Below, piece by piece: positions 11,761 through 40,174 of a stretch of 64,000 nucleotides of DNA (the stretch's first letter is position 1; each line of letters opens with the position of its first letter). The DNA comes from an uncultured Candidatus Saccharibacteria bacterium (lineage in GTDB: Bacteria > Patescibacteriota > Minisyncoccia > Phycocordibacterales > UBA1006), in the NCBI GenBank assembly GCA_964601935.1, contig CAZROP010000003.1:3366-67365 (forward strand), written 5' to 3'. Made by a program: the position numbers and the translations under genes. The notes below the pieces were generated by a model. The model did not search any database. It had not been told where the DNA came from and saw only the letters and a list, made by a program, of their open reading frames with translations.

Positions 11761-12195
11761 ATGGGAAAGAAAAAAGTCATTCGCCAACAGGGTCAGCGTG
11801 CTGACAAGAGCCTCGTTGCTCGTCAGTTGGCCCGAGTTAGCAAGAAAAAGCTCGCTAGTGGTGTGTTGAATATCTTTTCAACATACAATAACACTATCGT
11901 TACATTAACAGATTTGAATGGTAATACCGTTATTTCGTCATCCGCAGGTGCGCTAGGATTCAATGGAGCTAAAAAGTCCACACCCTACGCAGCTAACAAG
12001 GTAGGTGAAGTAATTGGTGAAAAGGCAGCTCAGGTGGGTGTCAAAGAGGTGTCAGTTGTTGTCCGTGGTGTTGGTTCAGGGCGCGAATCTGCGATTCGTG
12101 GCGTTCTGTCACATGGGGTTACAATAACAAAAATTGTAGACCAAACACCTGTTCCATTCAATGGACCTCGTCCGAAAAAAGCACGTCGAATCTAA
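11761..12195 (+). CDS. rpsK: 30S ribosomal protein S11
   Basis: The S11 signature ...NIFSTYNNTIVTLTD...GSGRESAIRGV...PFNGPRPKKARRI is present. Confidence 0.9.
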   Translation: MGKKKVIRQQGQRADKSLVARQLARVSKKKLASGVLNIFSTYNNTIVTLTDLNGNTVISSSAGALGFNGAKKSTPYAANKVGEVIGEKAAQVGVKEVSVVVRGVGSGRESAIRGVLSHGVTITKIVDQTPVPFNGPRPKKARRI

Positions 12196-12214
12196 TCCGT
12201 CATCGTATTTACAT

Positions 12215-12808
12215 ATGCACTCATTCAAAAAGTTCAAAGTGGCACGACGACTAGGCGTTGCACTCTTTGACAAATGTCAAACAGGAAAATTTGTTATCCA
12301 GCGTGCGCGAGTAGTGGGAAAGAAGGGCCCCAAAAAGGCCAGCGATTACTCACTCCAGTTAACTGAAAAACAAAAGGTTCGTTATTACTACAATGTTGCA
12401 GAAAAGCAGTTCAAAAACTACGTTCTCAAAGCTGCAAAAACAGCAGCTCCGGCACGGTCATTGTTTGAACTACTCGAGAATCGTCTGGACAATGTGGTAT
12501 ATCGACTGGGGTTTGCGGCATCTCGTCAGGCATCTCGTCAGATAGTGTCGCATGGTCATATGTCGGTCAATGGCCGCCGTGTTGACATCCCGTCATTCCA
12601 GGTTGGTCCTAATGATGTTATCACATTCCGTGATGGGTCCCGCGACAGTCGTATGTTCGAGCTCTCCAAAGAGCGCGCAGCAAAACATTCTGTTCCAGGC
12701 TGGCTATCACTGGATGCCCCTCATATGTCCGCAAAGGTTTCCGGTACTCCGTCTGACCCTGATCCAATTCTGAACTTTTCTTCCGTTATCGAGTTCTACA
12801 GTCGATAG
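12215..12808 (+). CDS. rpsD: 30S ribosomal protein S4
   Basis: The sequence SDYSLQLTEKQKVRYYYNVAEKQFKNY...LENRLDNVVYRLGFAASRQASRQIVSHGH..VNGRRVDIPSFQV matches S4. The start is placed at the MHSFKKFK methionine. Confidence 0.85.
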   Translation: MHSFKKFKVARRLGVALFDKCQTGKFVIQRARVVGKKGPKKASDYSLQLTEKQKVRYYYNVAEKQFKNYVLKAAKTAAPARSLFELLENRLDNVVYRLGFAASRQASRQIVSHGHMSVNGRRVDIPSFQVGPNDVITFRDGSRDSRMFELSKERAAKHSVPGWLSLDAPHMSAKVSGTPSDPDPILNFSSVIEFYSR

Positions 12809-26414: not shown

Positions 26415-27083
26415 CTACTCTTTCTTGGTCGCTATCTCTACCTGTGGATGCTCTCGAAATGCATACCATGATGTCGCGATATAGAACATATGGTGTACAG
26501 CGATAGACAACAGCCAGCCATTAGGCGGCATCAGCAGTATCAGTGCCCCGAACAAAAATCCACCCACCAGAGAAAACGCGATAAAATATAACGACCAGAA
26601 TCGCGGCAGTATACCGACGAGCGGGAAGTGAATCAACAGGAATACTGTTGTAAACAGGTCTAACGCATGGGATGGACTGGATGAAATTTCCAGCGCTATT
26701 GATGCCAGCACCAGCATACACGATTGTTGGAAAAATAGCTCAGCCACTTTTGATAAGGTGTGATTCACACCACCCATTACGCCTGTTCCGCCGCCTCGCA
26801 GTTCCTTTCTATGGTCAACAATTGAATAGACAACCAATGCCAGTGCAACTATGCTGTACAGGGTATACGCCTGCAACGAGGTAAATGACAGTGATGCAAT
26901 CAGGGGTGCGGTATCAGGAATCAGGCTCAGCACCAAAAAAGCAAACCCTGCATACACAGGGGCTACGATATATGATTGTGCATATGACAGTCCATAGTAC
27001 TTGCGAGCGAGCCAGAACCAGCCCATTCCTAAGAACCATATACACAGCCATACTGCTATGATTATCGTACTATCCAGGCTCAT
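26415..27083 (-). CDS. Polytopic membrane protein, possibly a CPBP-family intramembrane protease
   Basis: There are 6-7 hydrophobic helices. Weak CPBP-like motifs are KELRGGG, FxxxH (TTVFLLIHF) and HH (AVHHMF). The start is set at MSLDS because the longer ORF N-terminus is the translation of the tRNA gene. Confidence 0.4.
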   Translation of the reverse strand: MSLDSTIIIAVWLCIWFLGMGWFWLARKYYGLSYAQSYIVAPVYAGFAFLVLSLIPDTAPLIASLSFTSLQAYTLYSIVALALVVYSIVDHRKELRGGGTGVMGGVNHTLSKVAELFFQQSCMLVLASIALEISSSPSHALDLFTTVFLLIHFPLVGILPRFWSLYFIAFSLVGGFLFGALILLMPPNGWLLSIAVHHMFYIATSWYAFREHPQVEIATKKE

Positions 27084-27158
27084 GGAGCCGGCAGAGGGAC
27101 TCGAACCCACGACCCACGGTTTACAAAACCGTTGCTCTACCAACTGAGCTATGCCGGC
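27083..27158 (-). tRNA. tRNA-Thr (anticodon UGU) with the CCA encoded
   Basis: Cloverleaf: acceptor GCCGGCA/TGCCGGC, D-arm GCTC-AGTTGGTA-GAGC, anticodon stem ACGGT/ACCGT with loop TTTGTAA, and T-loop TTCGAGT. There is one T:T mismatch in the T-stem. The 3' end is TCCA. Confidence 0.75.
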
Positions 27159-27211
27159 GTTACAGAAGTAACTAACGTAGTATACTGAATATTATGATGG
27201 GGTCAACAAAC

Positions 27212-27652
27212 CTAATGTTGGGAATTAATCGGCTGGCTGGGGTAACGCTTTTTCGATAATGTTCTGATCAGTCTCTGTTCGGTGGCGCTGCGGGATTCGC
27301 GTGACTGATCAGCGAGGCGTTCTTTCAGCTGGTCCTCGTGCCGTTCCAGGTATTTGATAATTCCCAGTAGTCGCTTGTGACTGACTCGTAGTAATTTGTA
27401 GATGGTCAGCTTTACATAGCTCAGCAAATTCACTGCCCAGTAACGGAACGAAATATCACGTATCCAGTACAGGATATTGTAGAATCGCTGTTTCCACTTC
27501 TTTAAATTGGGAACATGCCAGGAATACAGTAATTCATTATGGTGTGTTGTATGGATTGCATGGGAATAGGTGCGGATGCTTTTGTACAGCAAAAGCAGGC
27601 AGGCTAGACACAGACCTCCGTAGAATAATAGAAATGAAAGAGATAAATCCAT
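27212..27652 (-). CDS. Hypothetical protein with an N-terminal TM helix and a basic/helical C-terminus
   Basis: ORF immediately downstream of tsf on the same strand. No recognisable motif. Confidence 0.4.
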   Translation of the reverse strand: MDLSLSFLLFYGGLCLACLLLLYKSIRTYSHAIHTTHHNELLYSWHVPNLKKWKQRFYNILYWIRDISFRYWAVNLLSYVKLTIYKLLRVSHKRLLGIIKYLERHEDQLKERLADQSRESRSATEQRLIRTLSKKRYPSQPINSQH

Positions 27653-27672
27653 ACAACACGATAATGATCCGA

Positions 27673-28131
27673 CTATTCCTCCAGTACCGCTATGCGATAC
27701 ATGCGCCCGATTTCGATACGTTCGCCCAGCTTCTGCATGGATTCCTCCAACAGTCCATGAATCGTGATGTCAGGATTCATCAGGAATGATTCTTCCATGA
27801 TAGTATCTGCTGTCGATCCCATTGCGGTGACATGCATCGCGATATGCTTGCCCAATTCGACAAAATCTTCATTCTTTGCAACAAAGTCCGTCTCGCACAA
27901 TAGCTCCAACATGGTGCCCACTGTTTTGTTGCTGTGTACATAGGTGGTGATGGCGCCGGCGCCTAATACTCGGTCTGCCTTTTTCGCGCTCTGTCCTGCT
28001 GAAAACTCGCGCAACACTTCGCGTGCGCGTTCCATGTCGCCGTTCGCTGCCTCGAGGGCTTCTTTACACTTTGCTACTGAAACTCCCGTTTCTTCTCGTA
28101 GCTGTTTTACTAGGTCAATTGAAATTTCCAT
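27673..28131 (-). CDS. tsf: Elongation factor Ts (short form)
   Basis: The N-terminal UBA-like sequence LVKQLREETGVSVAKCKEALEAANGDMERAREVLR and the ...CETDFVAKNEDF motif are present. Confidence 0.85.
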   Translation of the reverse strand: MEISIDLVKQLREETGVSVAKCKEALEAANGDMERAREVLREFSAGQSAKKADRVLGAGAITTYVHSNKTVGTMLELLCETDFVAKNEDFVELGKHIAMHVTAMGSTADTIMEESFLMNPDITIHGLLEESMQKLGERIEIGRMYRIAVLEE

Positions 28132-28364
28132 AGGTGCTCTATAATGGTGGATTATATTTATAACGTACGAATTATACCATGTGTTGGATATTCTTCGACC
28201 TTGCCCGTTTGTTGAAAAAGTGGTTTTGTTTGGTGCCTTGTACGGTACTCAAAATAGAAGAAAAGATATTTCTCATTCCGTAGGAATTTATTACACATTC
28301 AGTTAGCTTACTACGTGCATAGAATCATTTGCAATATTAAGAATTTCAGTTAGAATAATGGTAT

Positions 28365-28955
28365 ATGAAAAAGTATAAGCTCTCTGAAATCGCAGATATC
28401 CGACTAGGTTATGCTTTTCGTAGTGCGGTTGAGCCAGATCCAAATGGGAATTGTGTCGTTATTCAGGCAAATAATGTGCGTTCAGCAATAGAAGTTGACC
28501 ATAATGGCAGCCTCGTGAGGTGTAGCTTGAACCTGGGTGGTAATCCTCCTTATGCCGCACAGGGGGATGTATTTCTTTCATCTCGTGGATTTGGATTAGG
28601 GTCATATAGTTCTGCTGTGTATACTGGCCAGTCAGAAAAAGTCCTAGTGTCTGCTTCATTATTCATTATTCGTTTGACGGACGTCGGCAAGCAACTAGCT
28701 ACTCCTCATTATATCTCTGGTTTCTTCCGTTCTCCTGTAGGACAGAAATTGCTGGTAGATAGATCGTCAGGCTCTCATGTTCAAACGCTATCCCGCACCG
28801 CTCTGGGTGAAATCGAGATCGTACTACCTGATATTGAAAGACAAAATTCGATTATTGATCTGCAAGAATGCGCACGATACAAGCATGAAGGCTATCGCAG
28901 GAAAATACGACTCGAAACAGAAATTATCAATTCATTATTTACTAGTGTAATATGA
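28365..28955 (+). CDS. hsdS: Type I restriction-modification specificity subunit, half-size (single target-recognition domain)
   Basis: KLSEIADIRLGYAF at the N-terminus of the TRD and the conserved distal helix region LPDIERQNSIIDLQE are present. At 196 aa this is half the usual HsdS length. Confidence 0.65.
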   Translation: MKKYKLSEIADIRLGYAFRSAVEPDPNGNCVVIQANNVRSAIEVDHNGSLVRCSLNLGGNPPYAAQGDVFLSSRGFGLGSYSSAVYTGQSEKVLVSASLFIIRLTDVGKQLATPHYISGFFRSPVGQKLLVDRSSGSHVQTLSRTALGEIEIVLPDIERQNSIIDLQECARYKHEGYRRKIRLETEIINSLFTSVI

Positions 28956-29281
28956 GTACTAAAGCAGAAAAAACAATAAGTGAATCAATGAAGGTGGAGG
29001 TTGCCTTTCCTGGGTGCGTTCATGTCGAATTAGTGCAAGCGAACGATTTGAAACATTATGAGATATTTCTGTGGTTAGTTTCGCTGATGGCCTCGATCGC
29101 TTCTGGGTTTTGGGTGTCCTATGTGTGTACAGCGCCTGTTGATAATGCTATTGGTTGGTCCGCTGTTGCATTTACAGTACTAACTCTCGTATTTGGATCG
29201 ATTGCGTATTACTACAGATCTAGGATCAACGATACAAAGATAAAAAAGACATTCTTACTTGAAAGCTTTAATAACAAATAA
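28952..29281 (+). CDS. Small 2-TM membrane protein of unknown function, translationally coupled to the R-M operon
   Basis: An ATGA overlap with the upstream hsdS stop. It has two hydrophobic helices and ends 5 nt before the hsdM start. Confidence 0.4.
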   Translation: MSTKAEKTISESMKVEVAFPGCVHVELVQANDLKHYEIFLWLVSLMASIASGFWVSYVCTAPVDNAIGWSAVAFTVLTLVFGSIAYYYRSRINDTKIKKTFLLESFNNK

Positions 29282-29285
29282 ACAT

Positions 29286-30797
29286 ATGAACAACAAAAAA
29301 TACACACAAGAAGACCTCAACAAAATCCTTTGGGACGCAGCGGATTCTTCTCGTACACAGGTGGATGCCGGAATCTACAAGGACTACGTGCTTGCGATTC
29401 TTTTCTTCAAATACCTGAGCGACCTCTCGAAGAAAAAGCTCAACGAGTACAAGGAGCGTTTCGGGAACGATGAAAAGCGTACCGAAGAAAAAATGAAGCT
29501 CGATCGATTCTATCTTCCTCCGAAGTCGTCATTTGATTACATCTATTCAATCATTGAGCAGGACAATCTTGGTGAGGAAATAAACAAAGCACTTCATCGT
29601 ATTGAGGATGCCAACAAGGAAAAGCTTGACGGTGTATTTTCTGTAGATTTCAACTCAGAATCAACTCTTGGAAAACTTGCGGAACGAAATAAAATGCTTC
29701 GTCATCTTATACAGGACTTCGCAAAGATGGATCTCGCTGATGTGAATGACGACATCATCGGAAATTCGTACATGTACATGATCGAACGCTTTGGAGCCGA
29801 TGCTGGTAAAAAAGCTGGAGAATTTTTCACTGTGCGTAACGTTGCAAAGCTTGTGGCAAAGCTCGCAGAACCAAAGGCCGGTGCTCGTATCTGTGACCCT
29901 TGTGCTGGATCTGGAGGCCTCCTCCTTCTTGCTGGTGAAGAAGTTGAAAAGCAGGGTTCAAAGAACTACGCTCTCTATGGACAAGAATCAACAGGTTCAA
30001 CATATCAACTCGCTCGTATGAACATGTTCCTTCACGGAAAGGACTCAGCACGTATCGAATGGGGCGACACGCTCAATAATCCACTCCTTGTAGAAAATGA
30101 TCAGCTCATGAAGTTCGACACGATCGTTGCGAATCCTCCATTCTCTCTCAAAAAATGGGGTGCCGAGCATGCTGATGCAGATAAGTACAAGCGATTCTGG
30201 CGCGGTACTCCACCAAAGGATAAGGGTGATTTTGCATTCATCGCTCACATGGTTGAAGCAGCAAAGCCAAAGACTGGTCGCATCGCAGTCATTGTTCCGC
30301 ACGGCGTTCTTTTCCGAGGTGGTGCCGAAGGTAAGATTCGCGAACAACTTCTTAAAGAGAACATTGTCGAGGCAGTCATCGGACTTCCTGCAGGACTTTT
30401 CCAGACAACTGGTATTCCCGTAGCTGTCCTTGTAATTGATCGTTCAAGAGAAAAAGGTGGAGCAAATGAAAACAAAAAAGATGTCTTCTTCATCGAAGCG
30501 TCAAAGGAGTTTAAGTCAAACAAAGCTCAGAATATTCTTACCGATGAAAATATCGAGAAGATTTACTCTACGTACAAAACTCGAAAGGACGTAGCGAAGT
30601 TCGCTCGCAAGGTAAGTCTCAAGGAAATCGAGGAGAATGATTTCAATCTCAACATCACTCGTTATGTGGACACATTCACAGAGGAAGCCCCCGTAGATAT
30701 CAAAGCAAACTTGAAGGAGCTTGCTGAGCTTGAGCCACAGCTCGAGAAGCTTGAGAAACAAATGGTCGTATATCTAAAGGAACTAGGAATCAAATAA
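29286..30797 (+). CDS. hsdM: Type I restriction-modification N6-adenine DNA methyltransferase subunit M
   Basis: The HsdM N-terminal domain (LWDAADSSR....YKDYVLAILFFKYLSD), the AdoMet motif I (CDPCAGSGG) and the catalytic NPPF (VANPPFSLKKW) are present. Confidence 0.9.
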   Translation: MNNKKYTQEDLNKILWDAADSSRTQVDAGIYKDYVLAILFFKYLSDLSKKKLNEYKERFGNDEKRTEEKMKLDRFYLPPKSSFDYIYSIIEQDNLGEEINKALHRIEDANKEKLDGVFSVDFNSESTLGKLAERNKMLRHLIQDFAKMDLADVNDDIIGNSYMYMIERFGADAGKKAGEFFTVRNVAKLVAKLAEPKAGARICDPCAGSGGLLLLAGEEVEKQGSKNYALYGQESTGSTYQLARMNMFLHGKDSARIEWGDTLNNPLLVENDQLMKFDTIVANPPFSLKKWGAEHADADKYKRFWRGTPPKDKGDFAFIAHMVEAAKPKTGRIAVIVPHGVLFRGGAEGKIREQLLKENIVEAVIGLPAGLFQTTGIPVAVLVIDRSREKGGANENKKDVFFIEASKEFKSNKAQNILTDENIEKIYSTYKTRKDVAKFARKVSLKEIEENDFNLNITRYVDTFTEEAPVDIKANLKELAELEPQLEKLEKQMVVYLKELGIK

Positions 30798-30801
30798 ATA
30801 T

Positions 30802-31302
30802 ATGGCAGATACAAAAAGACAAGTTTTCTATAGTTTCCACTATAAGCCAGATGCGTGGCGTGTTTCTCAGGTTCGAAATATCGGAACTATTGAGGGTAAC
30901 AAACCTGCTCCAGATAACGATTGGGAAACTGTTACAAAGGGTGGTGATGAGGCTATAAAGAAATGGATCAAAGACCAGATGAAGTATCGATCTTGCACTG
31001 TTGTTCTCGTTGGAAAAGATACTGCCAACCGAAAGTGGATAAACCATGAAATTGTCGAGTCATGGAAGGCTGGTATGGGTGTTGTTGCGATTCATATATA
31101 CGGTTTGAAAAATCACGACGGCTACATCACCACTCAGGGAAGTAATCCATTTGATTACATATCTTACGGAGACAAAAAGCTCTCTTCGATTGCCAAATGC
31201 TATAACCCTGCAGGAACCAATAGCAAAGAAAGATATGACTGGATTTCACGGAACATGTCAGCCATGGTCGAAGAAGCTGTAAAAATCAGAAATAACAATT
31301 AA
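30802..31302 (+). CDS. ThsB-like TIR-domain protein (Thoeris ThsB / DUF1863 TIR-like family)
   Basis: KRQVFYSFHYKPDAWRVSQVRN...CTVVLVGKDTANRKWINHEIVES...VVAIHIYGLKNHDGYITTQGSNPFDYISY aligns with my recollection of B. cereus ThsB (KRVFFSFHYQDVIDFRVNVVRN...VTCVLIGSQTFNRRWVRYEIMKS...IIGIHINAFKDKYGNIKSKGPNPFDYLGY). That includes the putative catalytic Glu in (Y/H)EI. Confidence 0.65.
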   Translation: MADTKRQVFYSFHYKPDAWRVSQVRNIGTIEGNKPAPDNDWETVTKGGDEAIKKWIKDQMKYRSCTVVLVGKDTANRKWINHEIVESWKAGMGVVAIHIYGLKNHDGYITTQGSNPFDYISYGDKKLSSIAKCYNPAGTNSKERYDWISRNMSAMVEEAVKIRNNN

Positions 31303-31307
31303 TATTT

Positions 31308-31712
31308 ATGAGTACAAACGAAAAAAGACTAAAGCATTTGGAACTGATACAAGGAGTGATAACGAGAATGGGTAGTAACCTATTCACTCTTCGTGGGTGG
31401 ATGATAACGCTCGTTGTTGGTCTCTCTGTGGCTTTCTTGGAAGTTGGCCGCAACGAGCTGCAAGTAATATTGGTTCTAGTTATTTTGATATTCTGGGTAC
31501 ATGATGCTTATTTTCTCTCCCTGGAGCGTGGATACCGATGCTTGTACAACAAAGTAAGGAAGTTGGATGAGGATGCTATTGATTTCTCAATGGATATTTC
31601 AGAGTTTGATGTTTTGAAAACAATATCAATTTGGTACTGCATGTGGTCTAAGACATTGTCCTTTTTCTATGTACCGACACTAATATTAATAGCCCTAATA
31701 AGTATATTCTAG
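31308..31712 (+). CDS. Small 3-TM membrane protein. Candidate pore-forming effector (SLATT-like?) of the TIR cassette
   Basis: 134 aa with an amphipathic N-terminal helix, TM1 (LFTLRGWMITLVVGLSVAFL), TM2 (VILVLVILIFWVHDAYFL), a ~45-aa loop and a C-terminal TM (FFYVPTLILIALISIF). It is tightly packed between two TIR genes. The effector role is inference. Confidence 0.45.
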   Translation: MSTNEKRLKHLELIQGVITRMGSNLFTLRGWMITLVVGLSVAFLEVGRNELQVILVLVILIFWVHDAYFLSLERGYRCLYNKVRKLDEDAIDFSMDISEFDVLKTISIWYCMWSKTLSFFYVPTLILIALISIF

Positions 31713-31714
31713 CC

Positions 31715-32401
31715 ATGGATACATCTCGAAAAATATTTGTTTGCTATAAATACAAAGATTGGGGTGTTCAGCCTCTTGTTGAATATACGCCGACAGAGGA
31801 CACAGACTATCTCCACACACCTCGACATTATGTCGATAAAATAATAGAAGTTGTTGGAGCTGATCATATCTATAAAGGAGAGCGAAGTGGTGAAAGTATG
31901 GGAGATTTGGCGGACGACACCATTGACTCAAAGCTCAAAGAGAAAATCTTCGACAGCTCTGTCACTGTCGTGCTGATCTCGCCAAATATGTTTGACAGGT
32001 CAACATTAGAAAAAGATCAGTGGATCCCTAACGAAATTTCCTACTCACTCCGCTATAAAACTAGAGGATATAGAACAAGTAATCCAAATGCGATGCTTGC
32101 AGTAGTTCTGCCTGATAGAAATGGTAGCTATGATTATGCTGTGGTCCATCAAAATTGTGTGACAACATGGCGCACAGATACCTATTTTACTATCCTGAAC
32201 GAAAATATGTTCAATAGAAAAAGCAAGAATCAAAGACCTTGTGGTACATGCGGCAGTCACCACCATTTTGGAGATGATCATTCATATATTCACCCAGTCA
32301 AATGGTCTGACTTCATTTCTAACCACAATATCTATATCGATCATGCTTTATCACTAAGAGAAAACTTGCATCATTTCGATATCACAAAAATGCACGATTA
32401 A
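31715..32401 (+). CDS. Second TIR-like (DUF1863/ThsB-type) domain protein with a Cys/His-rich C-terminal extension
   Basis: KIFVCYKYKD...SSVTVVLISPNMFDRS...QWIPNEISYSL follows the TIR-like signature (F.SY..D....VVLIS.N...S.W...EI.Y.L). The C-terminus is CGTCGSHHHFGDDHSYIHP. Confidence 0.5.
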   Translation: MDTSRKIFVCYKYKDWGVQPLVEYTPTEDTDYLHTPRHYVDKIIEVVGADHIYKGERSGESMGDLADDTIDSKLKEKIFDSSVTVVLISPNMFDRSTLEKDQWIPNEISYSLRYKTRGYRTSNPNAMLAVVLPDRNGSYDYAVVHQNCVTTWRTDTYFTILNENMFNRKSKNQRPCGTCGSHHHFGDDHSYIHPVKWSDFISNHNIYIDHALSLRENLHHFDITKMHD

Positions 32402-32406
32402 TCATT

Positions 32407-34077
32407 ATGAAAAAAAACTCTCAATTAAAACTACATATCTCCCTAAGCAAGGAACACAATAAGTATCAGTCCGACGTGGTCGATGCCTTTAAGGGTGTAG
32501 ATGTTTCCTTTGACGGTGGACTCATGAGGTTTTCTTCTGGTGAGTTGGCTATGCAGATCATGCTGGCTATCGGTACAGGTGTTATATCGAGTGCTATGTG
32601 GGACGTCATTAAAGCTGGAATAAAAAAGCTTTATAAGAAGTTCAATACCTCACGCATCACCCTCAGAGATTCAGATTCGATAATGTATACAATTAAGCCA
32701 GATTTCTCTGTAACTGTTTTAGTTGTTCCAGATAGAGCTAAGGAGTTTGAACATATTAAGACATTTGATGATCTTGTTATTTATTTTCAAAATAACTCCA
32801 ACCCAAAAAATAATACTGGTTGGCAATTAGTGCCAGTAAGCGATGTTTTTACGTTTGTGAAATCTTACGCGTTTTCTAGAGACAACCTAACTAATGGAGT
32901 ATTAACAGAAGAAAAGATTGGCAACATACACTATGGTGATATCCATGCCACATATACATCAGAAAATGTAGATCTATCAAAGATACAAATACCAATTGTA
33001 AAAGAGGCTAGTTTTAATCCTAAAAAAGAAGATCTTCTTAAGGATGGTGACTTGATAATGGCTGATGCTTCTGAGGATTATGATGGTATTGGCGTAACTA
33101 TTTCAGTTCATGGTATCGGCAAAAATAAAGTCGTGGGAGGTCTACATACTTTTGTACTTAGAGATGAAAAAGGTAAGACCAGTGAATACTATCGTCAATA
33201 TATTTTTCTAAATAGAGAGATCAGAAATAAGCTACAAAAAGTAGCCAACGGTGTTTCTGTGTATGGAATCTCAAAAACAGCTCTCTCAAAAATGGAGCTG
33301 CCGCTACCATCTCTGTCGGAACAAAATCGTATTGTCTCAGTCCTTGAAACTTGGGATAAATCAATCGAGAAGCTTGCTCAAAAAATTGAAGCAAAGAAGC
33401 AGGTCAAGAAAGCCCTGATACAGGATTTACTAACCGGCAAGAAACGATTACCGGGATTTAATAAAAATTGGGAAATCACTGAACTTAAAAAGATTGCAGA
33501 AATATTTTCTGGTGGCACCCCTGATACTGGCAATAGGGATTTTTGGGACGGCAATATAAATTGGATAACTCCAACTGAAATTACTAAAACAGGTAAATAT
33601 ATCATTCAGAAGACAGAGAAAAAGATTACAGATTTGGGTCTTAAAAATAGTTCTGCAAAACTACTCCCTAAAAATTCTTTAATTATATGCACCCGTGCGA
33701 CTGTTGGGGAATGTGCGATTTCTACATATCCCATTTCAACCAATCAGGGTTTTAAGAATCTTGTTCCAAAGAGTAATACAAATGTTGAGTACCTTTATTA
33801 TTTTATAAAATCAATTAAAAATAGGCTTATAAAACTAGGATCAGGCAGTACGTTCTTAGAGGTTTCAAAAGGTGATATTGAAAAGCTAAAAATACATTTA
33901 CCGCCTGTAGATGAGCAAGTCGCAATTGCCCAGATACTAGCGACGGCAGACAAAGAAATCACCGAACTCGAAAAGAAACTCTCAATACTCAAAGAACAGA
34001 AACGATACCTCCTCAATAATCTGATCACCGGCACGATCCGCACACCCGAAACATTATCAACCAAACTAACCCAATAA
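32407..34077 (+). CDS. hsdS: Type I restriction-modification specificity subunit, full length with two target-recognition domains
   Basis: The central conserved region LPLPSLSEQNRIVSVLETWDKSIEKL and the distal one LPPVDEQVAIAQILATADKEITELEKKL are present. The two variable TRDs give 556 aa. Confidence 0.85.
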   Translation: MKKNSQLKLHISLSKEHNKYQSDVVDAFKGVDVSFDGGLMRFSSGELAMQIMLAIGTGVISSAMWDVIKAGIKKLYKKFNTSRITLRDSDSIMYTIKPDFSVTVLVVPDRAKEFEHIKTFDDLVIYFQNNSNPKNNTGWQLVPVSDVFTFVKSYAFSRDNLTNGVLTEEKIGNIHYGDIHATYTSENVDLSKIQIPIVKEASFNPKKEDLLKDGDLIMADASEDYDGIGVTISVHGIGKNKVVGGLHTFVLRDEKGKTSEYYRQYIFLNREIRNKLQKVANGVSVYGISKTALSKMELPLPSLSEQNRIVSVLETWDKSIEKLAQKIEAKKQVKKALIQDLLTGKKRLPGFNKNWEITELKKIAEIFSGGTPDTGNRDFWDGNINWITPTEITKTGKYIIQKTEKKITDLGLKNSSAKLLPKNSLIICTRATVGECAISTYPISTNQGFKNLVPKSNTNVEYLYYFIKSIKNRLIKLGSGSTFLEVSKGDIEKLKIHLPPVDEQVAIAQILATADKEITELEKKLSILKEQKRYLLNNLITGTIRTPETLSTKLTQ

Positions 34078-34081
34078 ACAT

Positions 34082-37000
34082 ATGTCACTCACAAACGTAA
34101 ATTTCGATGAAGCCAAGCAGTCACAGCTCCCATTCGTTGAGCTCCTGTTGAACATGGGCTACACATATGTTTCTGTTGCCGAAGCGCTCAGACAGCGAGG
34201 TGATACTTCGAACTTCATCCTTGCTGACATTGCAACAGAAAGGCTCATGGAGATAAACGGTTACGAGGTTGATGGTACCGAATACAAATTCAGCGAGAAG
34301 GATGTACGAGATGCTATCGACGAACTTGAGCACATCCAGTATGAGGGACTTATTGATACCGCTCAGAAAGTTTACAACATAATCATGCCGACAAGCGGAG
34401 GTAAGACGATCAAGGTGAATCACGGGGGCAAGAAGGTATCTAAGAACTTTAAGTTCATCGACTTCGAGAACATCGAGAAGAATGCTTTTCATGTATCTGT
34501 GGAATATGTCGCTAGTGGCAAGCAGAATATTCGTCCTGATATCGTTGTTTTTGTAAACGGTATCCCTTTTGCAGTGATTGAGAATAAGAAATCTAGTGTT
34601 GCCGTAGCTGAGGCACTCAACCAAATGAACCGTAATCAGGGTCCAGAATTCTGTCCGAAGCTTTTTACCTATACTCAGTTACTCGTTGCGACCAATGGCA
34701 AGGAGTTGCAGTATGGGACGACTGGCACACCAAACAAGTTCTATGCAGTTTGGAAAGAGAAAGGCACAGATTTGAAAACACTCAATACTCAGGTGTCTAC
34801 CTTGATCAAAAAGAAAATTGAACCCACCGTATATGCACAGTTGTTGCAAGACCTGAACGGATATACTGATGGCCATAAACAGCGAACAAGTAGGCTTCCG
34901 ACAGAGCAGGATCGAGGAGTATTTTCGTTATTTGAACCAAAACGACTACTGGATCTGACCAAGAACTATATTCTGTTCGACGCAGGTGTAAAGAAACTCT
35001 CACGATACCAGCAGTATTTTGCTATTCACAAGATGCTCAAGCGTGTAGAAGAGGAGGAGATTACTGACCATGGCATTACTCGCCGTAAGGGCGGACTGGT
35101 GTGGCATACTCAAGGATCAGGTAAATCGCTGACTATGGTGATGTTTGTGAAGGCGCTCATTGAAGATCCGCATATCCTCAATCCTCGCGTGATTATTGTC
35201 ACTGATCGTCGGGATTTGGATAAGCAAATCAAAGATACCTTCAAAAACTGCAACCTCAAGAAAGAGGTTGTTCAGGCTACCAGCGGTCAAAACCTCATTG
35301 ATCTCATCAAGGAGAAGGACTTGTCCGTCGTCACTACGCTCGTTCAGAAGTTTGAATCAGCTGCAAAGAAGAGCGTGGGGTTTGTGGATGATGACAAGAA
35401 CATTTTTGTTCTCATTGACGAAGCACACCGAAGTCAGAACGGTATGGCAAACTTCGAGATGAATAGAATCATCCCGAATGCGTGTTACATCGGATTCACA
35501 GGTACTCCACTTATGAAGAAGGACCGAGAGAGTTGGAAGAAGTTCGGTGACTACATCGACAGGTACACGATCGATGACGCCTTGGCTGACAAGATTATTC
35601 TTCCGCTTATTTACGAAGGTCGATATGTCGACTTGATTCAGAATGCTGAACAAATTGATCGTAGGGTTTCCAGAATTACTGATGGCTTGAGTGATAAACA
35701 AAAGAAGGAGTTACAGAAATTTGCCGGGACAAAGCTGATCAAGAGTAACCCGAATAGAATTGCAGAGATTGCGATCGACGTCGAAAATCACTTCGTTCAA
35801 AATTTCCAAGGCACAGGGCTCAAGGCTCAGCTGGTCGCACCTTCAAAGTTCTCTGCTGTATTGTTTCAGAAGTCTTTTGAAGCAAGCGGCAAAGTCCGTA
35901 CTGCGGTAATTATTTCTGATGAACACGAGGATGGCGATGATGAAAACCTCCACAAGAAAGAGGTCGTTGGGTACCTAGAGGGAATTCGCAAGAATCATAG
36001 CAGTGTTGAGAAATACGAAAAAGACGTCGTCGATAGTTTTAAGTATAACGATGATGGTATCGAAATCATTATTGTGGTAGACAAACTACTTACAGGGTTT
36101 GATGCGCCGCGAAATACGGTACTCTACCTCGCGAAGGATTTACGAGATCATAACCTACTCCAGGCTATCGCTCGTGTGAATCGACTGTACGAGAACAAGA
36201 AAGAGAAGCCGAAGACCGCAGGATATATCATGGATTATTCTGAAAATGCAAAGAATATCGATACTGCAATGAAGCTCTTTGGCAACTATGATGAAGGAGA
36301 TGTCAGGGGAACACTTATTGATGTATCTGAGAAGATACAGGAGCTCGAACAGAGTTACTCGCTAGTTCATGATCTATTCAAGGAAATAAAGGGATCGTCT
36401 GACGATGAGGAGTATTTACAATTCCTGGCAGACCAGCCAAAAAGAGAGACATTTTACAAGACCCTTAATGCATTTATAAAGAATTTGAGTGAATGTTTTG
36501 TGCTGCAAGATTTTGTTCATGAGTTCAAGCATCTCGACCTCTATAAGCGTGAGTTAAAGAAGTTTGCTGAATTGCGCAAGTCGGCAAGTCTGCAGTATGC
36601 TGATCGTGTTGATTTACTCGAATACAAGCAGTCACTCATTAATATCCTCGATAGGTATGTGGATGCTCGTGGTGTCGAATTGCTCACAAAACAAGTCAAT
36701 ATTACAGACAGGGCACAGTTTGAGCAAGCGGTAGCTAACCTAGGGTCAGACAAATCAAAAGCGGAAGCAATTGCTGCACAAACCGAAAAAACTATCACAG
36801 AAAAGATGGATAGTGATCCTGAATTTTACGAGAAGTTTTCAAAAAAGATTTCAGAGATTCTGGAGAAAATGCGCCAAGGAAAGCTTGCTGATGTGGAAGC
36901 GCTGAAACAAATGAAGGTGATTAGTAGTGACGTCGTGAATAAAAAAGACGAAAGCCTGCCCGAGAAGATTGAGTCACAGAAGGGGGCAGACGTATTTTAT

Positions 37001-37273
37001 CGTAATATTCGAGCAGGGCTTGATGGACTGAATCTGGACGAGGACACCTATATCTCTATAGTTCTCGATATCTTTTCTATCATCAAGAATGAAGCAATTG
37101 TAGACTGGTACAAGAATGGCGATGTGAAGCGCAAAATACGAAACAGCATCGATGATTATCTGTATGATGTTGTAAGAGGTGAAAAAGCTATTGATATTGA
37201 TAATGATCGTATTAGATCGATTATAGATACTGTATTGCATTTGGCAGAACATAACTTCGAATTGTTCATCTAA
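34082..37273 (+). CDS. hsdR: Type I restriction enzyme R subunit (endonuclease/helicase)
   Basis: The N-terminal PD-(D/E)xK nuclease (RPDIVVFVNGIPFAVIENKK), SF2 helicase motif I (TQGSGKSLTMV), motif II (LIDEAHRSQ), QxxR, and the long C-terminal helical domain are present. Confidence 0.9.
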   Translation: MSLTNVNFDEAKQSQLPFVELLLNMGYTYVSVAEALRQRGDTSNFILADIATERLMEINGYEVDGTEYKFSEKDVRDAIDELEHIQYEGLIDTAQKVYNIIMPTSGGKTIKVNHGGKKVSKNFKFIDFENIEKNAFHVSVEYVASGKQNIRPDIVVFVNGIPFAVIENKKSSVAVAEALNQMNRNQGPEFCPKLFTYTQLLVATNGKELQYGTTGTPNKFYAVWKEKGTDLKTLNTQVSTLIKKKIEPTVYAQLLQDLNGYTDGHKQRTSRLPTEQDRGVFSLFEPKRLLDLTKNYILFDAGVKKLSRYQQYFAIHKMLKRVEEEEITDHGITRRKGGLVWHTQGSGKSLTMVMFVKALIEDPHILNPRVIIVTDRRDLDKQIKDTFKNCNLKKEVVQATSGQNLIDLIKEKDLSVVTTLVQKFESAAKKSVGFVDDDKNIFVLIDEAHRSQNGMANFEMNRIIPNACYIGFTGTPLMKKDRESWKKFGDYIDRYTIDDALADKIILPLIYEGRYVDLIQNAEQIDRRVSRITDGLSDKQKKELQKFAGTKLIKSNPNRIAEIAIDVENHFVQNFQGTGLKAQLVAPSKFSAVLFQKSFEASGKVRTAVIISDEHEDGDDENLHKKEVVGYLEGIRKNHSSVEKYEKDVVDSFKYNDDGIEIIIVVDKLLTGFDAPRNTVLYLAKDLRDHNLLQAIARVNRLYENKKEKPKTAGYIMDYSENAKNIDTAMKLFGNYDEGDVRGTLIDVSEKIQELEQSYSLVHDLFKEIKGSSDDEEYLQFLADQPKRETFYKTLNAFIKNLSECFVLQDFVHEFKHLDLYKRELKKFAELRKSASLQYADRVDLLEYKQSLINILDRYVDARGVELLTKQVNITDRAQFEQAVANLGSDKSKAEAIAAQTEKTITEKMDSDPEFYEKFSKKISEILEKMRQGKLADVEALKQMKVISSDVVNKKDESLPEKIESQKGADVFYRNIRAGLDGLNLDEDTYISIVLDIFSIIKNEAIVDWYKNGDVKRKIRNSIDDYLYDVVRGEKAIDIDNDRIRSIIDTVLHLAEHNFELFI

Positions 37274-37277
37274 CCTT

Positions 37278-37982
37278 ATGAAAGAATTCATATTTGGAAC
37301 GTTTATATATGAATACCAACTTTTAAAACAAGATCGTAAAACGCTCTCCCTCACTGTTACCCCAGACCTACGTATTATCGTTAAGTGTCCACAGGCTGCA
37401 GATGATGACCGTATTGAAGCCTTCTTACAAAAGAAGTGGTTCTGGCTTGAGAAGCAACTTTCGTTCTTTAAAAAGTATCAGCGCAAAATGTATGAAAAAG
37501 AGTATGTGTCCGGAGAAGGTTATTTGTATTTGGGTAGACAGTACAAGCTCATTGTTCGAAGGGCTAAAGAAGATTCCGTCTCTCTCACTCGTGGTCAGTT
37601 AGTTGTTCTTACGACAAAGTTAGTTACCGACGGAAAACACAACAAAAAACTTATTGAGGGTTGGTTTGCTGAGAAAACTAGCATCATATTTCAAGATAGA
37701 TTTACTGAAATGCTCAAACGCTTTGATTTTAAGAGTCTTCCAAGGATGTCCACTCGAGGAATGAAGAAGCGTTGGGGTAGTTTCTTGAACCAAGACAAGA
37801 TATTTCTGAATCCGAAACTAATCCACACCTCAAAGGACTGTATTGATTATGTTATCGTTCATGAACTCTGTCATATGAAGTACAAGAATCACGACAAAAA
37901 GTTCTTTGATTTCCTTGACCAAAAGTTTCCTAAGTGGAAAAAGGTAAAGGAAAAGCTTGAAATCATGGGTTCATACTTTTAG
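37278..37982 (+). CDS. YgjP-like (DUF45 / M48-family) zinc metallohydrolase associated with Type I R-M
   Basis: The HExxH motif (VIVHELCHMKYKNHDKKF) is present. The gene is translationally coupled 4 nt after hsdR. YgjP-like genes are a known accessory of hsdR loci. Confidence 0.7.
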   Translation: MKEFIFGTFIYEYQLLKQDRKTLSLTVTPDLRIIVKCPQAADDDRIEAFLQKKWFWLEKQLSFFKKYQRKMYEKEYVSGEGYLYLGRQYKLIVRRAKEDSVSLTRGQLVVLTTKLVTDGKHNKKLIEGWFAEKTSIIFQDRFTEMLKRFDFKSLPRMSTRGMKKRWGSFLNQDKIFLNPKLIHTSKDCIDYVIVHELCHMKYKNHDKKFFDFLDQKFPKWKKVKEKLEIMGSYF

Positions 37983-38061
37983 TAGATAATATGCTGAAAT
38001 TATTCCATTATTACTTAATATACCGTATACTAAAGAATATAAGCTAATCCACAAAAACGTT

Positions 38062-38463
38062 ATGAAAACAGGATACTTTGGGAATATAGAAGAGCTGACT
38101 ATCGAGAACACCAATTTTCGCCAGGTGCTGTATACCGCACAGCACTGCCAGTTGGTGCTGATGTCATTGTTGCCAGGAGAAGAAATAGGGATGGAAGTTC
38201 ACGAAGAAGGTGACCAGTTTTTCCGATTCGAGGCAGGACAGGGTCGCGTCATTGTTGACGATATGGAATACGATGTCGCAGACGGGGATACGGTTATTGT
38301 GCCCGCAGGTGCACAGCATAATGTAGTGAATACCTCTGATTCTGAATCATTGAAATTGTACACACTGTATACGCCACCACATCATATGGATGGCATAGTG
38401 CGTACAACACGTGTCGATGCAATGGACAACGAGGCAGAATTTGATGGTAGTACGACGGAGTAG
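38062..38463 (+). CDS. Cupin-domain protein
   Basis: Cupin motifs G(X)5HXH-like (GEEIGMEVHEEGDQFF) and the second motif (GDTVIVPAGAQHNVVN) are present. Confidence 0.65.
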   Translation: MKTGYFGNIEELTIENTNFRQVLYTAQHCQLVLMSLLPGEEIGMEVHEEGDQFFRFEAGQGRVIVDDMEYDVADGDTVIVPAGAQHNVVNTSDSESLKLYTLYTPPHHMDGIVRTTRVDAMDNEAEFDGSTTE

Positions 38464-38467
38464 GGGA

Positions 38468-38510
38468 AGAACACAAAAGCTGGTCCCATGGGTACCAGCT
38501 TTTGTGTTCT
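38468..38510. repeat. Perfect 17-bp inverted repeat with a palindromic loop and no U-tract
   Basis: AGAACACAAAAGCTGGT-cccatgggt-ACCAGCTTTTGTGTTCT. It lies immediately after the cupin stop. Confidence 0.45.
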
Positions 38511-38591
38511 GTATAGTATTACTTCAACGCATCCAGCAGAGATGCGACATACTATTGACTGATTATGTGTATGGCAGTAATATAATTATAT

Positions 38592-39089
38592 ATGGACAAG
38601 AAGCTCGAACTCATACGATATATTCTGAGTCGGCTAGACGGCGGCGTTGCCGATTTATGGAAGATTTATAAACTAATGTACTTCATTGATTTTGCGTTTT
38701 ACGCTGAACATAAAAAGTCCTTATCAGGAGCAGAATATTATAACTGGCAGTATGGACCGGTTCCTATGAATCAGCAACAGTACTTGATCGAGAATTTGAT
38801 CGAATCAGGAGAAGGGTTAGGGTTGTGGAGAAAAGTGGATCAGAAGTCAGTTCAGGTAAATAATCCTGTGGTAGATAAGGATGGTTTTAATAGCGAAGAG
38901 GTGGCTGTGATTGACGGCGTCTTGTCAAAGTATGGAGGATTGACCGGTAGAGAATTGGTGACGTTGTCACATGAAGACATACCCTGGAAAATGACAAAAG
39001 AAGGAGAAAAAATAGAATATGACTATGTATTTTGGCGAGAAACAGAACCTGTAGAAATTCAGGACATCACTGATCAAGTTTTGAAATAA
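38592..39089 (+). CDS. Panacea-domain (DUF4065, SocA/PanA-like) putative antitoxin
   Basis: LELIRYILSRL.....DLWKIYKLMYFIDFAFYAEHKKSLSGAEYYNWQYGPVP matches the DUF4065 pattern (K..K.LY.....G.....Y..GP). Confidence 0.6.
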   Translation: MDKKLELIRYILSRLDGGVADLWKIYKLMYFIDFAFYAEHKKSLSGAEYYNWQYGPVPMNQQQYLIENLIESGEGLGLWRKVDQKSVQVNNPVVDKDGFNSEEVAVIDGVLSKYGGLTGRELVTLSHEDIPWKMTKEGEKIEYDYVFWRETEPVEIQDITDQVLK

Positions 39090-39090
39090 T

Positions 39091-39459
39091 ATGTCGTCAG
39101 TCAAAGTTTCGACCAGGTTCGCAAAATCTCTCAAAGAGAATAGTAAACACAAAGGACTGGAAAAGGTGCTGGCTCTAAAACTTAAGGAGTTAGATAAGTA
39201 TTTTGATTTGTCATACAAAGTATTGCACAATGATGCTGATTGGTGTATCAAAAAGCTCGATGCAACAAGTACAATCGGGGCGTATCGAATCATTGCCGCA
39301 CGATCTACTGATGGTAAAAAGGTAGTATATGATTTTTACTTTAAAAACTCAAAACAAGACATGAATAAAGCCGAGTTACAAGAACTGGCTGAATTTATAT
39401 CATCCTGTGACTCCGAAGAGTTCTATGTAAATCTTGATGACTTTGTACTTGATAGTTAA
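39091..39459 (+). CDS. Hypothetical 122-aa protein, translationally coupled to the Panacea-domain gene. Candidate toxin partner
   Basis: It starts 2 nt after the upstream stop. I recognise no domain in it. The assignment rests on gene context alone. Confidence 0.35.
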   Translation: MSSVKVSTRFAKSLKENSKHKGLEKVLALKLKELDKYFDLSYKVLHNDADWCIKKLDATSTIGAYRIIAARSTDGKKVVYDFYFKNSKQDMNKAELQELAEFISSCDSEEFYVNLDDFVLDS

Positions 39460-39460
39460 C

Positions 39461-39492
39461 AAAAACCACCCGAGAGGGTGGTTTTTGGTTTG
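39461..39492. terminator. Bidirectional rho-independent terminator between the island and convergent rpsB
   Basis: AAAAACCACCC-gaga-GGGTGGTTTTT followed by GGTTTGG. The minus-strand reading has a U-tract as well. Confidence 0.6.
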
Positions 39493-39496
39493 GACA

Positions 39497-40174
39497 TTAT
39501 TTCAACGCATCCAATAATGATGTAATGATGTAATGCACAGTTTGTGCATTGGCATCATTCGCCATGACTGGGTAGCCAGTCTGTGATATGTCACAGTCGG
39601 TATTTGCGATTGCAACTACAGGGATTTTCTTTGCATTACACTCTGCAACACAGATGTGTTCGTAGCGTGGATCGATAACGATCACTGCTCCAGGTACTGC
39701 CTCCAGGTGTTCGATTCCACCGAACTTTGATTCCAGATCCTCGATCTCACGATCGATCATCAGTTTTTCCTTTTTGGTTTTGTACGTCAGAGTGCCTGCA
39801 TCGCGGCCTTCTTTCAGCTTCTTCATCTTGTCGATACGGCGGCGGATTTCTGACCAGTTGGTGAGAGTTCCTCCGATCCATCGTTCAGTCACGCATGATA
39901 GGTGGCTGATGCGAGCGAGTCGAGCAACGATATCGCTGGTCTCTGGTTTGGTTCCAACGAGGATGATTGTTTTGCCTGATGCCTTTACCGATGCGAGCAT
40001 GGTTTTTGCATCTACGAGCTGCTTGCTGGTTGATTCCAGGTCGATGATGTCGATGCGGTTTTTCATCCCATAGAGATGAGGGATAACCGATGGGTGACGG
40101 CGTGAGCGCGAGTATCCCATGTGCGCACCGCGTTCGTACAGTGCCGATATTGTTTCCTGATGTGAATTTGACAT
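39497..40174 (-). CDS. rpsB: 30S ribosomal protein S2
   Basis: MSNSHQETISALYERGAHMGYSRSRRHPSVIPHLYGMKNRIDIIDLEST... matches S2 (HFGHQTR.WNPKM..YI.G.RN...IIDL). Confidence 0.9.
   Translation of the reverse strand: MSNSHQETISALYERGAHMGYSRSRRHPSVIPHLYGMKNRIDIIDLESTSKQLVDAKTMLASVKASGKTIILVGTKPETSDIVARLARISHLSCVTERWIGGTLTNWSEIRRRIDKMKKLKEGRDAGTLTYKTKKEKLMIDREIEDLESKFGGIEHLEAVPGAVIVIDPRYEHICVAECNAKKIPVVAIANTDCDISQTGYPVMANDANAQTVHYIITSLLDALK

Follow-up and report, generated by a model that had tools for sequence, protein, structure and literature searches.

Results

The rpsB-tsf pair is split in the window

Even rpsB and tsf, the genes for ribosomal protein S2 and elongation factor Ts (EF-Ts), which rank among the most conserved gene pairs of bacteria, can be split. 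The case analysed here lies in a 64,000-nucleotide stretch of contig CAZROP010000003.1 (assembly GCA_964601935.1), referred to below as the window. It comes from an uncultured bacterium of the Candidate Phyla Radiation (CPR, or Patescibacteria), whose S2 is only 47% identical to that of the closest GTDB species representative. Both genes lie on the minus strand, separated by 11,365 bp (interval 28132-39496). Which DNA fills this interval, whether it arrived as a single island, and how its presence is tolerated are the questions raised by the locus. The analysis supports the view that the interval is largely foreign DNA, mostly defence-related, and we consider it probable that the rpsB-tsf spacer of this CPR lineage is variable, tolerates insertions and received its present content in three or more separate steps.

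The two flanking genes are the following.

27673-28131, minus strand: tsf, intact, encoding a short EF-Ts of 152 amino acids (aa), a typical CPR length (TIGR00116, 113.9 bits, above the cut-off of 104)
39497-40174, minus strand: rpsB, encoding S2 (Pfam Ribosomal_S2, E = 4.6e-61)

These matches confirmed the positions and the strand given for both genes in the initial annotation. EF-Ts aligns with positions 1-76 of the Pfam EF_TS model, which has 204 positions; since this short form (150-156 aa) is common to hundreds of CPR homologues, the 152-aa protein does not result from truncation by the island. Between the two genes, 12 open reading frames (ORFs) were found, exclusively on the plus strand. 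The orientation and all the gene identities initially proposed were thus recovered, the count of eleven genes being one too few.

Six genome loci and 80 metagenome loci were then retrieved via rpsB or tsf. The initial annotation had taken the two genes to be normally adjacent, and this held: in the roughly 70 retrieved loci that extend far enough upstream of tsf, close relatives included, rpsB lies immediately upstream of tsf on the same strand, with a gap of 16-632 bp. Besides the window, the exceptions were L009/L093, which has a 12.4 kb gap, and L103, in which a convergent gene resembling asparaginyl-tRNA synthetase (AsnRS) follows rpsB. Intact sites were found in the following relatives.

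L011/L012: S2 67% and EF-Ts 65% identical to the window, rpsB and tsf adjacent
L094: S2 77% and EF-Ts 74% identical to the window, rpsB and tsf adjacent with a 92-bp gap
L097: EF-Ts 78% identical to the window, intact (empty) site with a 177-bp spacer

The flanks of the window are syntenic with relatives on the rpsB side (tgt, a hypothetical gene, mreB) and on the other side (tsf, an ORF, tRNA-Thr), and the upstream order tgt, hypothetical gene, mreB, rpsB is also kept in nearer CPR genomes. No restriction-modification (RM), TIR or Panacea genes were detected close to rpsB or tsf in the roughly 90 other rpsB/tsf loci fetched, and literature searches for a hot spot at rpsB-tsf returned nothing relevant. 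This comparison supports the conclusion that adjacency is the ancestral state and that foreign DNA separates the pair in the window.

A Type I RM operon shared with distant CPR bacteria

Most of the interval is taken up by a Type I RM module. It is described below together with its left spacer and without the genes lodged between hsdM and hsdS, which are treated in the next section.

28234-28364, plus strand: spacer at the left end of the RM module, no homologue in relatives, promoter-like site at 28328-28356
28365-28955, plus strand: half-size HsdS with a single target-recognition domain (Pfam Methylase_S and PADLOC Specificity_I, E = 1e-15)
28952-29281, plus strand: 109-aa transmembrane (TM) protein with two hydrophobic segments, no family match
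29286-30797, plus strand: hsdM, Type I methyltransferase (TIGR00497, 268 bits)
32407-34077, plus strand: hsdS, full specificity subunit with two target-recognition domains (Pfam Methylase_S, E = 1e-44, in two stretches) and an N-terminal extension of about 140 aa
34082-37273, plus strand: hsdR, Type I restriction/translocase subunit (TIGR00348, 479 bits)
37278-37982, plus strand: YgjP-like metallopeptidase, last gene of the RM module (Pfam YgjP-like, E = 2e-51)

HsdM, HsdS and HsdR, the gene set of a Type I RM system, are all present at full length. The nine genes from the half-hsdS to ygjP are spaced by at most 5 nucleotides (nt) and were read as one operon; we place the limits of the module at roughly 28234-38024, about 9.8 kb. 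A suspected fossil of the 3′ end of ygjP in the left spacer (28258-28344) was discarded, its DNA score being reached by 11 of 500 shuffles and its protein score of 27 falling inside the null distribution (26 +/− 3.7). Locus L002 was likewise rejected as a strain variant: the differing small ORFs after its half-hsdS are gene calls only, and its DNA is 100% identical to the window.

Homologues of this operon were found at two other CPR loci.

L102, a Nomurabacteria metagenome-assembled genome (MAG): half-S-like ORF, HsdM (96% identical to the window), UvrD-like helicase, 155-aa protein, HsdS, HsdR (89%), YgjP (86%)
L101: half-S-like ORF, HsdM (97%), then a DUF2130 protein in the slot after hsdM

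The identity of HsdR to its L102 homologue extends end to end over all 1063 aa, and the YgjP homologue is, as in the window, the gene after hsdR. At the DNA level, hsdM (29284-30800) is 87-88% identical to L101 and L102, and the region from the end of hsdS through ygjP (33947-37960) is 80% identical, the homology stopping at 37960. Half-S genes, 32-35% identical to that of the window, also stand directly before hsdM in L101 and L102, where the 109-aa protein has no counterpart. In L102 the operon has a different context: its neighbours are genes for enolase, pyruvate kinase and a large serine recombinase.

More widely, over 100 protein cluster representatives (from Nomurabacteria, Parcubacteria and Minisyncoccus archaeiphilus) carry an HsdM 85-97% identical to that of the window. 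Outside the genome of the window, by comparison, no S2 is more than 86% identical; among deposited genome assemblies the top value is 82% (P0007, a 1.3 kb contig), and those of named Nomurabacteria reach 46-49%. Since HsdM is this similar across the CPR while S2 is not, we concluded that the RM operon was transferred horizontally, and the comparison of the two proteins shows what must be, on this evidence, a recent acquisition from other CPR bacteria.

The C-terminal half of HsdS (residues 287-556) is 53% identical to the L102 protein. The exchangeable parts of the operon are the hsdM-hsdS slot and the target-recognition domains. The initial idea of separate histories for the backbone on the one hand and for the AT-rich specificity parts and cargo on the other was supported by the identities of HsdM, HsdR and YgjP to distant CPR MAGs with other genes in the slot; the swapping itself need not have occurred in this genome.

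From what is known of the family, an HsdM2S complex would methylate self DNA and an HsdR2M2S complex would cut unmethylated invaders. The half-S and the full S together may confer two specificities.

Two side observations concern the comparison with L102. The N-terminal extension of HsdS (32407-32820) contains a hydrophobic segment, has no Methylase_S match and is absent from the L102 homologue (403 aa). In L102 (8019-9344 and 20224-21512), a ParB-N6_N4 methyltransferase gene lies near the RM operon, in addition to the adjacent large serine recombinase; both are possible parts of a mobile vehicle.

A TIR cassette embedded in the RM operon

The slot between hsdM and hsdS holds three genes.

30802-31302, plus strand: TIR protein 1, ThsB-like / PDC-M50B (Pfam ThsB_TIR, E = 3e-26; PADLOC ThsB, E = 1.5e-66, and PDC-M50B, E = 1e-62)
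31308-31712, plus strand: PDC-M50A, small multi-pass membrane protein (PADLOC PDC-M50A, E = 2e-38)
31715-32401, plus strand: TIR protein 2, ThsB-like (PADLOC ThsB PDLC00428, E = 2e-68)

PDC-M50A and PDC-M50B are thus encoded side by side as a PDC-M50 pair, and the cassette is embedded in the RM operon, with gaps of 2-5 nt. Pairs of M50A and TIR genes are present on plasmids: a TIR protein encoded on Desulforapulum pHRM2a shares 66% identity with TIR protein 1, and TIR protein 2 is 46% identical to the TIR gene product encoded after M50A in Vibrio chagasii p1. On pHRM2a (L099, 7572-8480), a mobilizable plasmid, the M50A-like and TIR genes lie about 1.5 kb downstream of the lincosamide resistance gene lnu(F).

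The phage defence candidate (PDC) systems go back to Payne et al. (2024), who drew them from genes lying inside RM, BREX and DISARM loci, and embedded defence within Type I RM operons has been established experimentally for TgvAB of the V. cholerae island VPI-2 (for the concept of embedded defence, see PMC11411939 and bioRxiv 10.1101/2024.01.29.577857). The locus resembles these cases, as well as PrrC and the "guilt-by-embedding" PDC candidates of Payne et al. (2024), in having a small cassette set among Type I RM genes at distances of a few bases, proteins matching PADLOC PDC-M50A and PDC-M50B, and near-identical RM backbones with different cargo in the slot. It differs from them by a third gene, encoding the second ThsB-like TIR protein, by its CPR host, and by the leading half-hsdS and trailing YgjP peptidase gene of the RM operon. 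Literature searches for "PDC-M50" returned nothing relevant.

Two of the proteins strongly match ThsB-type TIR models, as in Thoeris (ThsA/ThsB). However, no ThsA effector (SIR2/SLOG or Macro-TM) was found among the island proteins scanned against PADLOC or Pfam, and the partner encoded here is the small membrane protein PDC-M50A. The cassette is therefore not Thoeris. By analogy, the co-transcribed TIR cassette would probably be a second-line abortive-infection module acting via NAD+-derived signalling or depletion, with PDC-M50A as a possible effector.

A host-like cupin gene also present in a sister lineage

To the right of the RM module lies a gene of another character.

38062-38463, plus strand: Cupin_2 protein, host-like in GC content (46.8%), with a codon fit better than that of any other gene of the block

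A homologue of this cupin gene (68% aa and 71% nt identity) is found between rpsB and tsf, in equal orientation, in the exceptional locus L009/L093. The two handles designate one JGI contig, Ga0558126_16097, whose S2 and EF-Ts are 86% and 81% identical to those of the window; its rpsB and tsf are collinear, 12.4 kb apart, and on either side of its gap the gene order of the window is conserved, as far as the tRNA-Thr gene beyond tsf. The gap contains 19 genes, the cupin gene and 18 ordinary genes; it includes an AsnRS-like synthetase, a metallophosphoesterase, a GDSL lipase, a GT2 glycosyltransferase, SnoaL, the cupin, TspO, DUF2177, ClpS, a glucosaminidase, MgtC and a major facilitator superfamily (MFS) transporter. 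Its GC content is 44.6%, versus 44.7% for the remainder of the contig. The cupin gene is the sole gene common to the two gaps. L103, whose S2 is 95% identical to that of L009, has the same junction between rpsB and a convergent AsnRS-like gene.

The nucleotide identity of the cupin genes lies inside the range observed for the flanking core genes (68-76%). This suggests that the cupin gene belongs to an older layer, predating the defence genes. Since it also occurs in the gap of a sister lineage that holds ordinary genes, the break of the operon was not simply the arrival of a defence island.

At its N terminus the L093 homologue is longer by 15 residues, and its DNA similarity reaches position 38025, upstream of the ATG in the window. 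The family is unusually conserved across phyla, a Hymenobacter plasmid homologue reaching 58.5% identity and those of Bacillus and Listeria phages 40%.

Terminator and promoter signals in the spacer

Two segments of the interval adjoining tsf and rpsB appear to be native.

28132-28233, minus strand: native tsf promoter/leader block, TTTTTCAAC..GGCAAG..TGGTATAAT..ATAATCCACCATTATAG..ATG, aligning with the region upstream of tsf in L097 and L093
39461-39488, minus strand (that of rpsB): present rpsB terminator hairpin, minimum free energy (MFE) −18.9 kcal/mol

In the empty site of L097, rpsB is followed by a hairpin terminator (CAAATCAAAAACCACC..GGTGGTTTTTGATTTG), after which a promoter-like block, GGCAAG..TGGTATAAT..AATAATCCACCATTATAG..ATG, leads into tsf; these two elements make up the spacer. 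A terminator of this type follows rpsB in the window, L009, L010, L094 and L103, and a promoter block of the same kind, about 100 nt long, precedes tsf in the window and in L093. When the window is compared with L097, the limits of native DNA fall at about 28233 towards tsf and at about 39460 towards rpsB.

Having its own terminator after rpsB and its own promoter-like block before tsf, the pair appears to form separate transcription units in this clade. Inserted DNA should then not break expression, and this is a plausible reason why insertions between the two genes are tolerated.

Within the block, a motif ATAATCCACCA(T/C)TATAG is strictly conserved just upstream of the tsf start (window 28132-28160, L093 9975-10000, L097 405-429). 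It sits where a Shine-Dalgarno sequence would be expected, and may be a leader or regulatory element.

A displaced rpsB end beside the Panacea pair

The right part of the interval contains two genes and, to their left, the remains of an rpsB terminus.

38468-38510: perfect-stem hairpin with 20-nt arms, 95% complementary, MFE about −29 to −30 kcal/mol on either strand, read as cupin terminator and fossil rpsB terminator
38517-38547, minus strand: fossil rpsB 3′ end (31 nt) encoding ..SLLDALK and a stop, direct repeat of the live rpsB end
38592-39089, plus strand: Panacea (SocA-like) domain protein, putative antitoxin (Pfam SocA_Panacea PF13274, E = 4e-20, above the gathering score)
39091-39459, plus strand: 122-aa partner of the Panacea protein, putative toxin, one base from the Panacea gene, no family match

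The fossil retains the reading frame and stop codon of rpsB and matches the live end (39496-39522) as a direct repeat at 22 of 27 positions. It is the sole extra copy of the rpsB end in the window, and it was independently matched by the rpsB end of L103 (87% identity, E = 1.8e-4); none was found in the sister contig L009/L093. The fossil terminator resembles the L010 type, the live one the L097 type. The 27-nt repeat flanks only the Panacea pair, not the whole block. Because the fossil consists of an rpsB end and a terminator, rpsB once ended beside the cupin gene. We concluded that this displaced end, as we read it, shows the Panacea pair to be an insertion separate from the rest of the block, with a signature that would fit either integration into a gene 3′ end or import from a relative.

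Several features recall the islands found at the 3′ ends of conserved genes: an imperfect repeat of the gene end surrounds the pair, the live end and a new terminator stand on one side, and the displaced old ones on the other. The Panacea element differs from them in lacking an integrase, in measuring only about 1 kb, and in occupying a ribosomal protein gene instead of a tRNA or tmRNA gene; recombinational import from a relative would explain the pair equally well.

The two genes may form a toxin-antitoxin-like module. The likeness to the PanA/Panacea (SocA-like) systems lies in a Panacea-domain protein encoded one base from a small unannotated partner. The difference is that the partner has no recognisable toxin domain (no match in Pfam, NCBIfam or PADLOC, and only a chance-level PHROG match, E = 0.004) and that the Panacea protein scores 37 bits against the SocA equivalog NF047745, far below the cut-off of 190. 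Neither protein has relatives in viral contigs.

Composition of the interval and the repeat at its edges

The whole block has a GC content of 40.5%, versus 45.6 +/− 2.0% for host genes. Within it, values are 43.8% for hsdM, 42.6% for hsdR, 38-40% for the TIR cassette, 36.5% for hsdS, 37.6% for ygjP, 39.8% for the Panacea gene and 36.3% for the gene of the 122-aa partner, the cupin gene being the host-like exception. In hsdM and hsdR, 33-36% of Leu codons are CTC (host 13%) and 61-67% of Lys codons are AAG. The mosaic composition initially described was thus recovered in the AT-rich TIR cassette and hsdS and in the CTC and AAG usage; the enrichment in TTC was limited to hsdM (in hsdS, TTC makes up just 15% of Phe codons).

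A short motif, GTGGTTTT(T)G(G)TTTGG, had been noted at both edges of the interval as compatible with a duplicated insertion site, and both copies were confirmed at their positions.

28220-28233: left copy, GTGGTTTTGTTTGG, read directly, ending where the homology to L097 ends
39478-39493: right copy, overlapping the rpsB terminator hairpin

Discussion

Origin of the split

The best explanation, in our view, is a stepwise filling of the rpsB-tsf spacer. In the oldest layer, which we infer, a host-like cupin gene convergent to rpsB would have entered the spacer, and this layer may be shared with L009/L103. The 9.8 kb Type I RM operon (half-hsdS, TM protein gene, hsdM, cargo slot, hsdS, hsdR, ygjP), whose arrival as a step of its own is shown by its homology to other CPR loci, lies between the cupin gene and the tsf promoter. 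The Panacea pair, about 1 kb long and marked as a further step by the fossil rpsB end, entered about 30 nt before the end of rpsB, supplying a replacement 3′ end and terminator and displacing the old ones to a position beside the cupin gene. The last two steps may have occurred in either order.

Several observations weigh against this stepwise reading. As to the mechanism of insertion, no integrase, recombinase or transposase gene was found in the 12 island ORFs or in the neighbours within +/−15 kb, and no clear att remnant within +/−15 kb of the interval, so that the mobility marks for which the neighbours had been proposed as a place to look did not turn up in the searched locus. The promoter and terminator assignments are sequence-based only. 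Cupins of this family are frequent on plasmids, with up to 58.5% identity. As to a shared old split, tsf is 73-75% identical at the nucleotide level in all pairs formed by the window, L009/L103 and L097, and over the last 252 nt of rpsB, L097 and L009 are 82% identical versus 79% for the window and L009. For this reason we discarded an ordering of events by S2 and EF-Ts identities: the three lineages being nearly equidistant, the split could have arisen twice, and the cupin gene could be an independent acquisition.

This last point leads to the alternative that the lineages of the window and of L009/L103 split the pair independently, at a recurrent hot spot, each acquiring the cupin gene separately, as foreign DNA in the case of the window. 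The marker distances do not place the intact-site L097 outside a group of the window and L009, the family has plasmid members and is present in some phages, and the two gaps share nothing but this gene. Yet its position and orientation are equal in both lineages, its divergence matches that of the flanking core genes, and its GC content and codon fit are host-like in both genomes; independent splits are in our judgement unlikely. Much more improbable is the single insertion of one island of about 11.4 kb with duplication of a 14-16 nt target, as the edge motif had suggested. The alignment score of its two copies was reached by only 13 of 2000 dinucleotide shuffles, which is modestly above chance, the left copy stops exactly with the homology to the intact-site relative, and a similar weak repeat flanks the L009/L093 gap (reached by 70 of 2000 shuffles). 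However, L097, whose site is intact, has a related A-rich tract at the position of the left copy, and the geometry does not fit: at rpsB the hairpin is complete, at tsf there is just one copy resembling an arm. Moreover, the interior is heterogeneous and made of at least three parts: the homology of the RM module to other genomes stops before the cupin gene, this gene is shared with a sister lineage, and the fossil rpsB end sets the Panacea pair apart. As the edge copies flank pieces acquired separately, they are unlikely to be the target duplication of one insertion, and neither the duplicated site initially suggested nor a single island was supported. Finally, a mis-assembly joining unrelated contigs at the rpsB or tsf ends could be feared in a sequence taken from a MAG, since chimeric joins can arise at repeats or terminator hairpins. 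But the tsf-side junction and the whole RM block recur in Logan assemblies made independently from two runs, which match the window at 100% identity over 27123-38131 and 27131-29594, and a 13.2 kb Logan contig carries the rpsB of the window too. The arrangement is therefore not an assembly artefact, the chance of such an error being in our estimate minimal.

Significance of the locus

The split of so conserved a pair seems to have been possible because in this lineage both genes appear to have already had a terminator or promoter of their own. The RM operon provides a concrete, datable case of recent horizontal transfer between distant lineages of CPR/Patescibacteria. To our knowledge, these bacteria are largely without CRISPR, so that RM systems may be a main line of defence in them. 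The operon would act as a carrier with a swappable cargo slot, and offers a natural context for the candidate PDC-M50 system of TIR and membrane proteins.

A bolder reading, which we put forward as possible and rather doubtful, is that the rpsB 3′ end and spacer are a lineage-specific hot spot used repeatedly by integrase-less cassettes, and that, separately, one RM carrier operon with an exchangeable slot circulates across deeply divergent CPR classes (85-97% protein identity). The hot-spot reading is prompted by the fossil rpsB end and by the differing cargo in sister lineages. Such a circulating operon would imply an unrecognised exchange vehicle (phage, integrative and conjugative element or serine-recombinase element) among reduced episymbiont genomes.

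No new principle is involved. A defence island, the horizontal transfer of an RM system and embedded cargo are known in kind, and the locus extends the patterns of defence islands and embedded defence to an unusual site and host. Moderate interest attaches to this site, which is an unusual one, to the fossil rpsB end, and to the wide circulation of the RM carrier operon among distant CPR lineages.

Additional observations on the neighbourhood

The interval lies among housekeeping genes, with rpoB, rpoC, dnaG, rpoD, a NUDIX gene, tRNA-Thr and a 146-aa ORF on the tsf side, and mreB, the hypothetical gene, tgt and genes for cysteinyl-, arginyl- and a class II aminoacyl-tRNA synthetase on the rpsB side. 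The tRNA-Thr(TGT) gene (27083-27158) is located just downstream of tsf and the 146-aa ORF, off the island boundary, a position conserved in L093. It is overlapped by a mechanically called ORF (26415-27143) whose true start is probably later. The rpsB product is called at 225 aa in the window and at 207 aa in the protein collection. In L011, one of the loci with an adjacent pair, a gene for an IS200/IS605-type Y1 transposase (12102-12530) lies about 1 kb downstream of tsf.

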